This document shows, one piece after another, positions 17,540 through 36,120 of a DNA stretch of 64,000 nt. Both the position numbers and the translations under genes were made by a program. The notes below the pieces were generated by a model. That model was not told the origin of the DNA and did not search any database. It was given only the letters and a program-made list of their open reading frames with translations. How positions within the stretch are numbered: position 1 is the stretch's first letter; each line of letters opens with the position of its first letter. Origin of the DNA: an uncultured Candidatus Saccharibacteria bacterium (GTDB lineage Bacteria; Patescibacteriota; Doudnabacteria; UBA920; O2-02-FULL-48-8); contig CAZSDS010000001.1 of the NCBI GenBank assembly GCA_964605735.1, positions 703,157 through 767,156 on the forward strand. Direction: 5' to 3'.

Positions 17540-17715
17540 TTTGTTTTTGTTTCTGATATCTGCTCATTTTGGCAGACAGAAATATATTAACCAACTCAAT
17601 TATACCACAAGAACTTGAATTTGTCCAGCAAAATATAATGGTTGATACTGGCAATTCCAAGAGGTTTACTTAATCATATTTGTTTAAGGAACAAAAGAAA
17701 CTTGTGTTTATGGTT

Positions 17716-19905
17716 GTTTCACGTGAAACACGTATTTAGTCAGATGTTTCACAAGAATTTAAGTCCAAAGAACAGGGCAAAACCTAAATTGCAAAGCTGT
17801 GTCTAAAAACCCCTTAATAACGAGAGAATCAGCTAGATTTCCAAACTATTTCCCTATAAATAAGCATATCAATAAAACATGAAAAATAGGGTGGAAATAA
17901 ATACCGTGAAACAAGGTTATTGCTCAATGTATTTTATTTACGAAAGATGGGACTTCAGAATCAGGGCCCTTTTTCTCAGTTTCACGCATTCTTATTGGGA
18001 GTTGAGAATTTGCCTTTATTTCAAACAATGTTTCACGTGAAACATTGTTGAAATAGCCTTAAAATGTTTCATTTTTTCAAATAGTGTACATTATTGGCCC
18101 AAGTTTTTTGACATAAAATGGCTTATTTAAGCCAATTCTAAGTAGTTTTCATAACCAGTTTCCTAGGATATTAAGGCTGGGGTAGGTGTCTATATTTCGG
18201 CAAATATTACACTTGTGGAACGTTGATTAACTCCCAATAAAATGGTATTCATGCTCAATATACCCTATTCGTGCAAATCTCTATTAGTATTTAGAGTTCA
18301 ATATTTGAACTGCAAAGTAATCCCATCTTATGAAATATTTCGCCAAATAACACTAGAAAATCCCCTGGTAAATTGCGGTTAAATCCTTATTATTTACGCA
18401 AAATCTAGAATTTTTTTGGCTTATCTAAGCCTGTTTTAAATAGATTTTGATTTTGTTTCTTTAGGAATTCGGGGTCTGAATATGTTTCACATGAAACACA
18501 TAGAATGTTTCACATAAGTATGTGTTTCCGCCTTGCTCTTCCTGAGACTGTAAAAAGTGGCTAAATTAAGGGAAAACATACAGTTCTCGAAACTATTTTC
18601 CTAATATATTGATGCACTATATTCCTGTGAAACATACCGCTGTTTCTCAGTGAAACTACTTAGTAATCACTAAATATTAGAGAAATTGCTGTTAAAAGAA
18701 GGATTTGGCCTTGCTGAATAGTTAAAAGATAGTGATCTAACGAGCCAATAACCAATAACGCTAATATTATTGCTATTTTTTGAGTGTTCCACGTGAAACG
18801 TATCCTGGTGCCTACATATAATAGCGTTATCAAACCAAGTAGTCCTGTTGTAGCGGCGATTAGTAGAAAGATATTGTGAGGGGGTTGGTATTGCCATGGT
18901 TCCACGTGAAACGCATGTTCCGCTGTTCTAATGTACTGACCTAGCCCTACACCAAAAATTGGCCTTTCTTTGAATAAAGTGAGTGCCATATCATTAAAAT
19001 CAGCTCGATATTCAATAGCGGGATCATTATCCACTGTTTCCAATGATCTGGGGATAACTAAGTCACTGTAAAACCCTATCAAAATTAGGGTAGAAATCAC
19101 CCCCAATAAGGTCACTAAAAACGCGGTTTTAAAGCGCTTTTTTGCCAAATTTTTTGCAAGGAAATACAGGAGGATGATAGTTGCTGTAAGCCATGCGCTC
19201 CTTGAGAAACTCACAAGTAATCCCCAGGCTAGAATTCCAGCTGTTATAGCGCATAATATAGCCTTGAGTTTGGTTTCACGTGAAACGTTAAGGAGAAAGA
19301 CTAAACAAACAGCCAAAAACCCACCAAGTACATTAGGGTGCGGGAATGTGCCATAAGCTCTTAAAACCTTGGTTCCAGCAATATCCAAAGTAGCGGCCCC
19401 AGAGTCAGTCATTCGAGGCAGATGGTAGCCAATTGTGCTGAATTCCCGGATTTGTTCCACGTGAAACTGTGCTACAGCCAAAATTGACTGAAAAACCCCG
19501 TGAACAAGTAATATGCCAATGATTGGTCTGTGTGTTTGCGGGTTAGATCGTACGTAAATGAAAATGAAAGCATATTCAGCCAGTTTTAATGTTGCATACA
19601 GCCAGGAGTTAAAGTGTTCCACGTGAAACAGTCCAATCAGGCTTATTGCCAAGAGTAAAAGAATTAGTGGCTTTATTTGAAGTCTTTTTTGAGTAAAAAA
19701 ACAGGTGAGTGCCAGGGTTACCACAGCCAAATCACTAGCATAAATAAAGAAAGCTTTGTGGTAAGAAAAGTAATAGTCTATAAAGGCGTCATCAAAATTT
19801 AGGATCGTCCTTAATTGAAAAGGCGCCAAGATAAAGAACAGATAAAGAAGTAGATCTGTTATAGGTATGCTTTGGATTTTCGTAAATAATTGTTTCACGT
19901 GAAAC
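17716..19905. repeat. dispersed palindromic motif GTTYCACGTGAAAC, at least 8 exact copies plus variants
   Basis: Exact copies at 17716, 18030 (inside the 26-bp perfect palindrome 18024-18049), 18786, 18899, 19273, 19454, 19616 and 19892. Variants at 18484 (CACATG core) and 18640 (GTTTCtcagTGAAAC). See F2 for context. Confidence 0.8.
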
Positions 19906-19955
19906 ATTGACTTATTGTAAAAAATATTGTCTGATGATGAAAATTCAAAAATCAT
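18660..19955 (-). CDS. O-antigen ligase / Wzy_C-family polytopic membrane protein
   Basis: Ten or more TM helices; Wzy_C-like motifs RAYGTFPHPNVLGGFLAV and SFSRSAWL. Five in-frame palindrome copies encode FHVE/K. Confidence 0.65.
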   Translation of the reverse strand: MIFEFSSSDNIFYNKSMFHVKQLFTKIQSIPITDLLLYLFFILAPFQLRTILNFDDAFIDYYFSYHKAFFIYASDLAVVTLALTCFFTQKRLQIKPLILLLLAISLIGLFHVEHFNSWLYATLKLAEYAFIFIYVRSNPQTHRPIIGILLVHGVFQSILAVAQFHVEQIREFSTIGYHLPRMTDSGAATLDIAGTKVLRAYGTFPHPNVLGGFLAVCLVFLLNVSRETKLKAILCAITAGILAWGLLVSFSRSAWLTATIILLYFLAKNLAKKRFKTAFLVTLLGVISTLILIGFYSDLVIPRSLETVDNDPAIEYRADFNDMALTLFKERPIFGVGLGQYIRTAEHAFHVEPWQYQPPHNIFLLIAATTGLLGLITLLYVGTRIRFTWNTQKIAIILALLVIGSLDHYLLTIQQGQILLLTAISLIFSDY

Positions 19956-32951: not shown

Positions 32952-33983
32952 ATGGCAAAAAAAGAACGTGAAGAAAAAACAACTGGCGGCGGTTTAGAAA
33001 ATGCTCTCGCCTCAATCAGAGACAAATTCGGAGAGGGTTCAATCATGACTTTGCAGAAAGCAACCACCATGCACGTGGAGACAATTCCAACCGGATCAAT
33101 CTCACTTGACCTAGCACTCGGTGCCGGCGGAATTCCCAAGGGACGCATCATAGAAATTTTCGGACCTGAAGCATCCGGCAAAACCACCCTTGCCATGCAC
33201 ATCATGGCTGAGGTCCAGAAGCGCGGAGGAGTTGCTGCGTTCGTAGACGCTGAGCATGCTCTTGACCCTGACCGGGCAAAAGCTGTTGGAGTTAAGATCG
33301 ATAAACTTTTGATTTCACAACCGGACAGCGGCGAGCAAGCTCTGGACATTGTTGAGACCCTGGTCAGATCAAACTCAGTCGATGTGATTGTGGTGGACTC
33401 GGTGGCCGCGCTTACACCAAGAGCGGAGCTGGAAGGGGAAATGGGCGACTCACACATGGGCTTGCACGCAAGGCTCATGAGCCAGGCTCTCAGAAAACTT
33501 ACAGCGATCATTTCCAAATCCCGTTCCACAGTCATCTTCATCAACCAGATCAGAATGAAGATCGGAGTCATGTTCGGCAACCCGGAGACGACCACCGGCG
33601 GACAAGCACTCAAGTTCTACTCCTCAGTCCGGATTGAAGTCAGACGGCTTGCCCAGATCAAATCCGGAGAAACCATTGTGGGTAACCGGGTCAAAGCCAA
33701 GATTGTTAAGAACAAAGTTGCCGCTCCATTCAAAGTCGCGGAGTTTGATATCATGTTCAGCGAAGGCGGAATTTCTTACGCCGGCGACTTGCTTGACACC
33801 GGCATTGCCTGTGGTGTTGTCACCAAATCAGGGAATACCCATTCCTTTAAGGACGTGAAACTTGGGGTTGGTCGGGAAAACGCCAAAACATTCCTGCGAG
33901 AAAACCCAAAGATTACATCCGAGATTGAGAAAAATATCCGTGCAAAGTCTAAGGAAATTGATTTATCGGATTCAAAAGAGTAA
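32952..33983 (+). CDS. recA: recombinase RecA
   Basis: [13 protein letters not shown] Walker A and the canonical RecA core sequence throughout. Confidence 0.95.
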
Positions 33984-34155
33984 AAAACACACGGCTCAAG
34001 TCAAGTTAAGGCAAATTTATGAAACCAGACCAAAGGTAAACAGCCAGGGTCTGGTTTTGGATTTGTGAAACATCTGGGATCGCCGTTAAATAAATTGACT
34101 AAAAATTCGTTCCAAAACTTACCTTGACTTTGGGTGCTCATTTAAGTTGTAAACG

Positions 34156-34184
34156 TTGACAATCGACCAAATTTTTGCTATACT
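34156..34184 (+). promoter_or_regulatory. consensus sigma70 promoter TTGACA-17-TATACT
   Basis: -35 TTGACA at 34156-34161, -10 TATACT at 34179-34184. No ORF follows. Confidence 0.6.
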
Positions 34185-34189
34185 TAGTA

Positions 34190-34607
34190 CATAGTTAAGT
34201 GAAGTACATTAAAAAATACGAAACAAAAGTTAGCGGAGAAAGCCGAGAGCTCAAAAAAATTGAACTTCTGGCGTTCTCCACTATTCGTCATAGCCGTCTA
34301 GCCCGGCTGATTGAAAAACAAAAATAAAAAACAAAAAAATTGCTCTTTTGGTCGCACAAAAAGTTCGCACAAAACAAAAATAAAAAGAGACACGTTTGAG
34401 GTCCACAAGACCATAAGAACAGTGGGAACGTTCGCTCTTATAAAGAGGCTAGCAATATAAGGAAACACCTTCACAAGACGATGCGTGCCATTGCCCTGGA
34501 CTTGAGTCCGCTAACCATTAGCGGCATAGCGGATTGGGGTCCAAGGCGATGACAGGCTCCTATGAAGGCCCTCATAGTGAGAGGACCTTGTCCTCGCTAA
34601 TTATTTA
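34190..34607 (+). ncRNA. candidate structured non-coding RNA of unknown family (~415 nt)
   Basis: Strong promoter upstream. The GC-rich 3' half (34380-34600) is made of consecutive hairpins (CTTATA..TATAAG, GGACTtgAGTCC, CCGCTAAccaTTAGCGG, CTATGAaggcccTCATAG). It ends in the terminator GAGGAC-cttg-GTCCTC plus a T-rich tract. Confidence 0.35.
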
Positions 34608-34730
34608 TTTTATATTAGGCGGTACGCTCAAGTTCCTCTCCTATATCCATTTCTCACTATGAAAAAATGACTACAACGCGCAAGGCGTTTTTTTTGTACC
34701 GAAATTTTTTGCTGTACATTTCTGCAGTTG

Positions 34731-34759
34731 TCTCAAGAGCAAGAGTCTGGTATATTAGA
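34731..34759 (+). promoter_or_regulatory. putative promoter TTGTCT-17-TATATT for the dksA/traR-like gene
   Basis: Hexamers spaced 17 bp apart, about 25 bp upstream of the start codon. Confidence 0.4.
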
Positions 34760-34779: not shown

Positions 34780-35136
34780 ATGAACGAAAAATTACTACAG
34801 GAAAATAAAGCTAAGCTTGAATCAGAACGAGACAGGTTGCGCGGTGTCCTTGGACGTGAAAATATTCATGATGGTCCAGGCGCGTTCCCGGGAGAATACA
34901 AGCCAAAGTTTGATGAGGTTGGAAGGCAGGATGATGAGAACGCTTCTGAAGTCGAGAACTACGCAAATGCTCTGGGTGAAACAAATGTCCTTGAAGGACG
35001 GCTCCAGAAAATTGAAGCCGCTTTGCAAAGAATCGCGGACGGCACTTACGGCAAATGCAAGGAAGGTGATGATATAGAAGAAGAAAGGTTGCGTGCCGTA
35101 CCTGAAGCTGATACCTGCATGAAGCACTCAGTATAA
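34780..35136 (+). CDS. DksA/TraR-family protein (degenerate C4 zinc finger)
   Basis: Coiled-coil N-terminus and a C-terminal GTYGKC...C segment characteristic of the TraR/DksA family. Confidence 0.65.
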   Translation: MNEKLLQENKAKLESERDRLRGVLGRENIHDGPGAFPGEYKPKFDEVGRQDDENASEVENYANALGETNVLEGRLQKIEAALQRIADGTYGKCKEGDDIEEERLRAVPEADTCMKHSV

Positions 35137-35142
35137 TTAGTC

Positions 35143-35580
35143 ATGCACAGGCTGTTTATAGTTTTTGTTTTGATTGATCAAATCACGAAGATGCTGCTCG
35201 CATCCCGTGATTTTTTTATTCTTGGTTTGCACCTCCACCCGATGAAAAATTTTGGCTTGCCTTTTGGTTTGGACTTTGGAGGGGTTTGGAATTTTATTTT
35301 GCTTTGCGTGGTCTATGCTGTTGCGTTGTGGTACATAAAGCACCTGCCAAGCAAATCCATTTGGATGTATGCAGGCAAATCCATGTTTTTGGCAGGAGCT
35401 GCTTCAAACTTAATTGACCGGATTTTTTTCGGTTACGTCAGAGATTTTATAGACATCAGTTTGGGTTTTGTTTTTAATTTGGCTGATCTGTTTATTGTTG
35501 TTGGATTGGCAATTATACTTTTGCTTCCACCGGACAAGACAAGAACAGTGGAAAATTCACACCCAATTAGCAAAACCTAA
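35143..35580 (+). CDS. lspA: lipoprotein signal peptidase II
   Basis: Conserved NxGxxFG and FNLAD motifs; four TM helices. Confidence 0.8.
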   Translation: MHRLFIVFVLIDQITKMLLASRDFFILGLHLHPMKNFGLPFGLDFGGVWNFILLCVVYAVALWYIKHLPSKSIWMYAGKSMFLAGAASNLIDRIFFGYVRDFIDISLGFVFNLADLFIVVGLAIILLLPPDKTRTVENSHPISKT

Positions 35581-35687: not shown

Positions 35688-35816
35688 ATGGCTAGGAACA
35701 ATAATAAGGGTCGAGGATGGTTTGGGGACTCAGCCAGACACGCCGCTGCCGGAAGACTTGGTGGCAGAGCGCGCGGCAGAAAGCGCAAGAACAGTTCAGA
35801 AAGTGAAAACGAGTAG
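35688..35816 (+). CDS. tiny (42 aa) Arg/Gly-rich basic protein
   Basis: Strong SD AAGGGAGGTG 7 nt before the ATG, and a terminator hairpin GCAGA-ttgaataatg-TCTGC-TTTTT at 35921-35948. Sequence: MARNNNKGRGWFGDSARHAAAGRLGGRARGRKRKNSSESENE. Confidence 0.5.
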   Translation: MARNNNKGRGWFGDSARHAAAGRLGGRARGRKRKNSSESENE

Positions 35817-36045: not shown

Positions 36046-36120
36046 GGGCATGTAGCTCAGCGGTAGAGCGAATGTCTTATACACATTTGGTCCCAGGTTC
36101 GAATCCTGGCATGCCCACCA
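36046..36120 (+). tRNA. tRNA with anticodon UAU (predicted tRNA-Ile, AUA-reading)
   Basis: Hand-folded: acceptor GGGCATG/CATGCCC, D-arm GCTCAGCGGTAGAGC, anticodon stem AATGT/ACATT with loop CTTATAC, T-arm CCAGGTTCGAATCCTGG, A discriminator, CCA. Confidence 0.65.

Follow-up and report, generated by a model that had tools for sequence, protein, structure and literature searches.

A candidate structured RNA family of about 0.5 kb beside a dksA-like gene in Doudnabacteria-type CPR bacteria

What occupies the 796-nt gap between recA (32952–33983) and a dksA-like gene (34780–35136) in a Doudnabacteria-type bacterium of the candidate phyla radiation (CPR)? The gap lies in a 64,000-nt stretch of DNA from an uncultured organism (GenBank assembly GCA_964605735.1, contig CAZSDS010000001.1, forward-strand positions 703,157 to 767,156), hereafter the window, where it is the second largest gap and the median gap is 89 nt. 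An initial annotation of the window had remarked on the size of this gap (~800 bp), which these counts bear out, and had proposed that it holds an orphan transcription unit for a structured noncoding RNA (ncRNA), with no open reading frame (ORF) and matching no universal RNA. Comparative analysis agrees: the region is conserved in 19 loci, its helices covary, no ORF is conserved across it and Rfam has no match for it. A new RNA family is well supported by this comparison, in its existence, its strand, its predicted boundaries and its fold.

An RNA conserved upstream of dksA-like genes

With the gap as query, an nhmmer search of 80 recA loci returned one weak match (L001, E = 1.8e-11), located away from recA, with a DinG-like gene preceding it and a homologue of the 118-amino-acid (aa) dksA-like gene immediately 3′ of it. 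Further loci were fetched via the 118-aa protein family, and the element was present in every locus of this clade having enough upstream sequence. The loci bearing the element by nhmmer and profile searches are L001, L003, L081–L090, L095, L099–L111, L116 and L117, among which L003 is a more distant member and L095 holds a partial, truncated copy. Together they give 19 distinct full or nearly full sequences, window included, and in 19/19 distinct loci the RNA lies directly upstream of the dksA-like gene and is co-oriented with it. The RNA core is 68–79% identical to that of the window at the nucleotide level, compared with 55–70% for the adjacent dksA-like gene. A core covariance model that leaves out the pseudoknot and is based on 14 main-group sequences recovers five held-out divergent members at full length with E values of 1e-10 to 3e-17, and the window itself scores 142.8 bits over the full length of the core covariance model R1 (34276–34463).

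Each locus has one copy of the RNA, and a scan of the window with the profile and the covariance model found no second copy. The RNA was not found in the phage and viral collections INPHARED and IMG/VR. On these two grounds, a single copy per locus and no match in either collection, a phage or mobile origin was rejected.

Analogous gaps occur at two more distant loci. Upstream of a distant dksA-like gene (33% identity), L092 has an analogous layout at 1425–1880, consisting of a TTGACA-17-TATATT promoter, ~400 nt of A-rich noncoding sequence with ACAAAAACAAAAACAAAAC, a terminator, a second consensus promoter and the gene. L094 has a gap of ~720 nt 5′ of its dksA-like gene. Homology of the L092 and L094 upstream gaps to the RNA family was undetectable by nhmmer and by the covariance model with filters off.

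Transcript ends, strand and fold

The elements of the unit in the window, all on the + strand, are the following.

34156–34184, +: predicted RNA promoter, with −35 TTGACA (34156–34161), a 17-nt spacer with a T-tract and TG, and −10 TATACT (34179–34184); 11/12 match
34191–34695, +: predicted transcript of ~505 nt, its ends taken from the promoter and the terminator; nhmmer profile match at 34200–34694
34236–34278, +: HP1, a long hairpin, GAGAAAGCCGAGAGCTC ... GAACTTCTGGCGTTCTC; compensatory changes in 10 of 12 pairs
34279–34286, +: 5′ strand of the long-range helix P-LR, CACTATTC (ACUAUUC), partner at 34417–34424; 90–91% paired, four covarying pairs (CG/UA/AU, UA/CG)
34292–34308, +: HP2, AGCCG-TCTAGCC-CGGCT; stem 100% paired in 19 sequences, three covarying pairs
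34297–34303, +: HP2 loop UCUAGCC; 7-bp kissing pairing with the HP4 loop GGCUAGC at 34447–34453
34315–34330, +: A-rich tract 1, 16 nt, AAAACAAAAATAAAAA (= AAAACAAAAAUAAAAA); nearly invariant columns
34341–34389, +: HPm, a variable middle hairpin in which a U/G-rich segment pairs with A-rich tract 2 (34371–34386) and the following bases
34400–34412, +: HP3, GGTC-CACAA-GACC, followed by the conserved CATAAGAAC
34417–34424, +: 3′ strand of P-LR, GAACAGTG (GAACAGU), partner at 34279–34286
34437–34461, +: HP4, CTTATA ... TATAAG, with the loop GGCTAGC (34447–34453) complementary to the HP2 loop
34468–34568, +: P5/P6 domain, CCTTCAC...ATGAAGG closing a long irregular hairpin (34480–34559); compensatory changes in 14 of 21 pairs
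34579–34640, +: P7/P8 domain, with P7 formed by GAGAGGA (34579–34585) and TCCTCTC (34634–34640) and running 8 columns
34595–34598 and 34618–34621, +: P8, CGCT pairing with GGCG, with an A/U-rich loop
34581–34595, +: local hairpin GAGGAC-ctt-GTCCTC, a lineage-specific alternative to P7, absent in most relatives
34675–34695, +: predicted intrinsic terminator, AACGC-GCAAG-GCGTT plus T8 (T8 at 34688–34695)

Comparative analysis supports at least 10 helices, including a long-range helix and a 7-bp loop–loop (kissing) interaction. RNAalifold, applied to 17 sequences, gives HP1, HP2, P5/P6, P7 and P8, with 52 pairs of which 33 have compensatory double changes; the two long-range interactions (P-LR and the HP2–HP4 loops) were added by inspection, which resulted in a 68-pair model. 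Over the full alignment, 90% of the cells in this model are paired, as opposed to 37–45% when the partners are slid by 1–3 columns, and double changes are found in 41 of the 68 pairs, as opposed to 16–23 when slid, with a covariation score of 0.44 versus ~0.12. None of 500 shuffles equalled the observed values. Aligning related genomes and testing for covariation had been proposed in the initial annotation as a check of its prediction, and the result is in its favour. The result repeats when the 19 sequences are aligned with the covariance model, with 93.5% paired overall; for the kissing loop the figure is 96%, with three covarying pairs, the HP2–HP4 interaction having been excluded from that model. 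An unbiased column scan recovered the same helices and found no further robust helix.

The architecture shown by comparative analysis, as predicted from the alignment, starts with HP1, continues with the long-range helix that encloses HP2, the A-rich region and HP3, and ends with HP4, P5/P6 and P7/P8. The 7-bp loop–loop interaction between HP2 and HP4, shown by the same analysis, is predicted to lock the core. The two loops co-vary by lineage, as UCUAACC/GGUUAGA, UCUAGUC/GACUAGA, UCUAAUC/GAUUAGA, UCCAACC/GGUUGGA and UCAAGUC/GACUUGA, and their pairing could take place within a molecule or between molecules. The window has all of the core features of the family: ACUAUUC...GAACAGU, the complementary HP2 and HP4 loops, the AAAACAAAAAYAAAA tract, P5/P6, P7/P8, the promoter and the terminator.

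Outside these features the lineages differ. In L100 and L003 the apical part of HP1 varies or is enlarged, and an alternative 5-bp extension of HP1 may compete with the 5′ strand of P-LR. The register of HPm differs between lineages (GUUUGU/ACAAAC and, in the L001 subgroup, UGGUUUU/AAAACCA by eye), with an extra insert in the window. HP3 appears as GGUC/GACC, GGUA../..UACC or GGUG/CACC, and is capped by a GNRA or UUCG tetraloop in several relatives. The P5/P6 hairpin, which contains CCAAGGCGATGAC, has a variable tip that is truncated in L086, L088 and L106. For A-rich tract 1, a column scan for covariation found no pairing partner; the P8 loop and the 3′ U-tail were considered as partners and rejected, as covariation was not seen by eye or in the column scan.

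Two peculiarities of the window were noted in this region. An 18-nt duplication of the RNA 5′ end (34185–34210; TAGTACAT...AAGTACAT) is absent from relatives, and the extra insert in the A-rich region, at ~34350–34370, contains TCGCACAAAA twice.

At the 5′ end, the near-perfect sigma70 promoter that the initial annotation had read at 34156–34184 gains support from the relatives. A single promoter match alone is weak evidence, since a 3-kb scan gave 8 promoter-like sites where 4.1 were expected; exact TTGACA and a 17-nt spacer before a −10 hexamer recur, however, in 15 of the 18 homologues with the 5′ region available, and the relatives share an architecture of TTGACA, 17 nt of spacer with a T-tract and TG at its end, and TATAMT. 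The predicted transcription start is at ~34191.

At the 3′ end, the prediction has to be revised. A canonical terminator had been placed at ~34575–34607, giving a length of ~415 nt, and the hairpin concerned does exist at 34581–34595; it was rejected as the RNA terminator, given that its 5′ arm is the conserved P7 strand and the A/U-rich P8 loop accounts for the T-rich tract that follows. The transcript is therefore predicted to run to 34695, for ~505 nt, ending at a second hairpin with a T8 run, which the initial annotation had also seen and which lies at 34675–34695. A hairpin plus 6–9 T is found at the equivalent 3′ position in all relatives; in L001, L089, L116 and L117, the P7/P8 domain with a U-run itself serves as terminator. 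Across members, lengths range over ~420–580 nt.

The A-rich 5′ part and the GC-richer stem-loops after it, described in the same annotation, are seen in the window, and the + strand folds with a z-score of −5.3 against shuffles. The − strand reaches −7.2. As both strands fold better than shuffles, single-sequence evidence could settle neither the strand nor the reality of the feature. The alignment points to the + strand: across the 52 RNAalifold pairs, G·U occupies 131 cells and A·C 30, an excess indicating a structure that functions on the + strand but not on the complementary one. The minus strand was thus rejected despite its better energy, on the basis of this G·U excess, the conserved + promoter and the conserved T-run terminator.

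Could the conservation instead be due to coding? ORFs of 42 aa (34199–34327) and 49 aa (Lys-rich, 34311–34460) do occur on the + strand of the window and would be the candidates for small proteins. No ORF of at least 20 aa is common in position and frame to the 17 aligned homologues, which is the outcome of the reading-frame check that the initial annotation had suggested for small ORFs, and L083 is free of any ORF of at least 20 aa. The HP2 loop has 1-nt insertions and deletions that shift the one frame with local plausibility, substitutions follow compensatory base pairing rather than third-position wobble, and a Pfam search gave no match. We consider a coding explanation extremely unlikely.

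With gathering scores, Rfam 15 finds 13 tRNAs in the whole window and nothing in the gap. At E ≤ 10, the gap and six divergent homologues give only chance matches to microRNA and small RNA (sRNA) models, so that the Rfam check proposed in the initial annotation identified no known family. The models of OLE, ROOL, GOLLD, HEARO and raiA are unmatched at gathering score and at E ≤ 10, as are, at E ≤ 10 in seven family members, those of transfer-messenger RNA (tmRNA), RNase P RNA, signal recognition particle (SRP) RNA and 6S RNA. Literature searches did not find a description of this RNA.

A divergent form of one of the latter four RNAs, missed by Rfam models in this lineage, is nonetheless worth considering: CPR genomes diverge, 6S RNAs are especially hard to detect by sequence, the strong promoter is of the kind that housekeeping RNAs have, and there are superficial likenesses of GGAGAAAGCCGAG and AACCCGGCUGAUUG to CR-I and CR-V of RNase P RNA and of CCAAGGCGATGAC to helix 8 of SRP RNA. 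The likenesses dissolve in the alignment. The RNase-P-like strings covary with local partners, in HP1 and HP2, and not with each other. The SRP resemblance, already raised in the initial annotation, is spurious, as CCAAGGCGATGAC sits in the P5/P6 hairpin, the apex of which differs in length between members and is missing from the three loci named above. For tmRNA, ARAGORN finds none in the window, the 3′ end is an intrinsic terminator and pairing of the 5′ and 3′ ends was not found in the covariation scan. The 6S candidate fails on fold and length, the consensus being a multi-domain structure of ~420–580 nt with a long-range helix and a kissing loop rather than a ~180-nt rod with a central bubble; of the two options left in the initial annotation, 6S RNA or a lineage-specific sRNA, the first is thus disfavoured and the second, in that the RNA is probably lineage-specific, is retained. 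With no Rfam match at E ≤ 10 in the window or in the six divergent homologues, we judge a missed known RNA to be very unlikely.

Independent gene or leader

The gene downstream of the RNA has a predicted promoter of its own.

34728–34756, +: predicted promoter of the dksA-like gene, TTGTCT-17-TATATT with TG (scan match)
34780–35136, +: dksA-like gene, 118 aa, YteA/DksA family, with lspA next at 35143–35580

The YteA/DksA family comprises RNA-polymerase-binding factors of the secondary-channel type. The 118-aa protein matches the TIGR02890 yteA model (E = 1e-13) and DksA (E = 3e-8), as well as solved DksA structures (E down to 1.6e-9). Its close homologues carry Doudnabacteria names at source, and among species-representative genomes the nearest RecA, at 78% identity, is from a Candidatus Doudnabacteria metagenome-assembled genome (L001). 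The commonest gene order is ftsK, rodZ-like, recA, RNA, dksA-like and lspA, and lexA is close by; the L001 subgroup and L003 have a DinG-like gene in place of recA upstream of the RNA. The dksA-like–lspA pairs in other contexts (L112–L115 and L118) have neither the gap nor the RNA, the context in L112–L115 being sepF-yggT-divIVA-...-dksA-lspA-rluD. In the window, recA has a terminator-like hairpin of its own at 34042–34056, 3′ of its end at 33983.

Given this constant position, the RNA could be a giant cis-acting leader, an attenuator of the dksA-like–lspA operon in which a signal decides between termination and readthrough at 34675–34695; a metabolite could be that signal, as could the state of RNA polymerase or a protein, for example the DksA-like factor itself. 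The placement of the RNA directly 5′ of the gene, on its strand, in every one of the 19 loci fits such a leader, and so does a possible switch. A hairpin, 'hairpin X' (GCUCUGUAUC/GAUACAGAGC), overlaps the P7 3′ strand in several group-2 sequences and, in L086, also the terminator 5′ strand, a classic antiterminator topology; by eye, it covaries in L106. As a family-wide model, attenuation via 'hairpin X' was rejected, as the hairpin belongs to only a subset of sequences, being absent from group 1, the L001 subgroup and L003, and P7/P8 itself is the terminator in L001, L089, L116 and L117. In L084 and L106 the hairpin is present without terminator overlap.

The sequence between the terminator and the gene also speaks against a leader. 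The distance from the T-run to the dksA-like start codon is 30–100 nt, and within it a TGnTATAMT-type −10 element is conserved in nearly all relatives; L092 has a full consensus promoter there. In L086 and L088, the −10 element lies 6–7 nt before the ATG, implying a leaderless mRNA. The promoter that the initial annotation had assigned to the dksA-like gene is thus seen as a TG-extended −10 site at 34728–34756, and the independence that it had concluded is plausible in view of the conserved −10, although the RNA is always immediately upstream on the same strand. Finally, a conserved multi-domain structure of at least 400 nt with a pseudoknot far exceeds known leaders. As a leader, the RNA would rank with the largest and most elaborate of known cis-regulatory RNAs; we regard a leader role as doubtful.

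Since 'hairpin X' is not general, we favour an independent, trans-acting RNA over a leader: the element is probably a previously undescribed ~0.5-kb structured ncRNA gene of Doudnabacteria-type CPR bacteria, with the DksA-like protein or RNA polymerase as a possible partner. The product would be a stable RNA, present in abundance and acting in trans as a scaffold, a ribonucleoprotein or a catalytic RNA, and the invariant 16-nt A-rich tract may be the recognition site for its partner. Because the RNA always adjoins a gene of the YteA/DksA family, that protein or RNA polymerase itself is the likeliest functional partner or pathway, a proposal that draws on synteny only. Such a partnership would parallel that of OLE RNA, which is linked to a partner gene, or the action of 6S and Ms1 RNAs on polymerase.

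Four points weigh against this interpretation. The synteny evidence for a functional link amounts to about one rearrangement (recA versus a DinG-like gene upstream) and is hence weak; the fold is unlike that of 6S RNA; the invariable same-strand position immediately upstream of the dksA-like gene also fits a cis-acting leader; and purine-rich (GCGGAGA, three times) and pyrimidine-rich (CUCUGC-like, three times) strands recur, so that alternative pairings or switching may occur.

A bolder version of the trans-acting interpretation, that the RNA represents a new large functional class in the CPR (a global regulator of RNA polymerase alongside the DksA-family factor, analogous to 6S or Ms1 but unrelated in structure; an RNA-only oligomer that forms via the covarying loop–loop contact, as ROOL or GOLLD do; or a ribozyme), seems to us unlikely. 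If true, the RNA would be among very few large structured RNA classes and the first that is CPR-specific. Bacterial RNAs that are both large and complex in fold are rare, and those already known (the ribosome, RNase P, group I and II introns, tmRNA, OLE, ROOL and GOLLD) perform sophisticated biochemistry. The genomes of CPR bacteria are tiny, about 1 Mb, and a 0.5-kb noncoding gene under strong purifying selection in such genomes implies an important role; this RNA has a near-consensus promoter and a core more conserved than the neighbouring protein gene. With its well-defined covarying tertiary contacts, the family lends itself to structural, metatranscriptomic and biochemical work, and the constant proximity to the gene of a DksA-family factor offers a testable hypothesis on transcription control in an uncultivated lineage.

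Several observations concern the neighbouring genes and the rest of the window. The zinc finger is degenerate in the RNA-linked DksA-like proteins, with CxxG...CxxH in the window protein and no Cys in that of L003 (L003:8146–8448); an RNA-less homologue, P0062, has a Pfam zf-dskA_traR match, and most RNA-linked homologues have no such match on record. Downstream of lspA, a 42-aa, very basic ORF (MARNNNKGRGWFGDSARHAAAGRLGG...) at 35688–35816 gave no match in an NCBIfam search, and a gene of 44–52 aa is at the same position in L099–L102. Just downstream of the RNA–dksA–lspA cluster is a tRNA-Ile with anticodon UAU (36046–36120), an anticodon unusual for bacteria, and L104 and L111 also have tRNAs at the equivalent position. 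In relatives, the lexA promoters contain a Gram-positive-type LexA box (TTGACA..GGTGAACGATCGTATACCAT; L100:5652–5784, L101:5977–6109 and L102:4402–4534) and, 3′ of this box in the lexA leader of L100–L102, there is a conserved hairpin of ~70 nt (ACGAAGGAAUUGGU...ACUGAUUCCUUCGAA). SOS control of the RNA was considered and rejected: by eye, its promoter has a GAAC half-site only, and relatives' lexA promoters carry the Cheo-type box GAACGATCGTAT. Elsewhere in the window, an 18-bp perfect palindrome, ATGTTTCACGTGAAACAT, occurs in seven copies (0–3 mismatches; 0.09 expected by chance) between 17714 and 19907, ~280–490 bp apart, three of them in the largest noncoding gap of the window (17540–18659) and four inside a 431-aa minus-strand membrane-protein ORF (18660–19955).

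Comparison with known RNAs

The closest parallel to the RNA described here is OLE (RF01071), likewise a bacterial ncRNA of ~0.5–0.6 kb with an intricate conserved structure and invariant stretches, confined to one lineage, and likewise persistently adjoining a particular protein gene. In OLE, this gene encodes a partner, oapA, and the RNA is found inside an operon, in extremophilic and anaerobic Firmicutes. The RNA in the window differs in its CPR host, in its own consensus promoter and terminator, in its DksA-family neighbour and in being without a match in Rfam. The OLE ribonucleoprotein has been described (PMC10898510, PMC9723947).

ROOL and GOLLD are also large, ornate RNAs with pseudoknots and kissing loops found by covariation. 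In ROOL, a loop–loop contact first read as intramolecular joins separate molecules in a cage, and both RNAs are associated with phages or prophages, near tRNA islands (PMC12286853). The HP2–HP4 contact could, as in ROOL, mediate oligomerization. Unlike ROOL and GOLLD, the present RNA, which Rfam does not match, belongs to a conserved chromosomal core locus, ftsK-rodZ-recA-RNA-dksA-lspA.

With 6S and Ms1 RNAs, the family shares probable strong, constitutive-type expression as a stable RNA and a possible link to RNA polymerase, here through the adjacent gene; lineage-specific substitutes for 6S RNA exist, such as Ms1 in mycobacteria. The 6S and Ms1 RNAs are rod-shaped and imitate an open promoter with their central bubble, whereas this RNA is ~2.5 times longer, multi-domain and pseudoknotted. 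Terminator-bearing noncoding transcripts directly 5′ of genes for secondary-channel factors are also known, in the greA leader/GraL and the rnk leader, the rnk leaders being Rfam families. The greA/GraL and rnk leaders are ~100 nt long, simple and share the promoter of their gene, whereas the RNA upstream of the dksA-like gene has ~505 nt and at least 10 helices, and the gene keeps a −10 element of its own.

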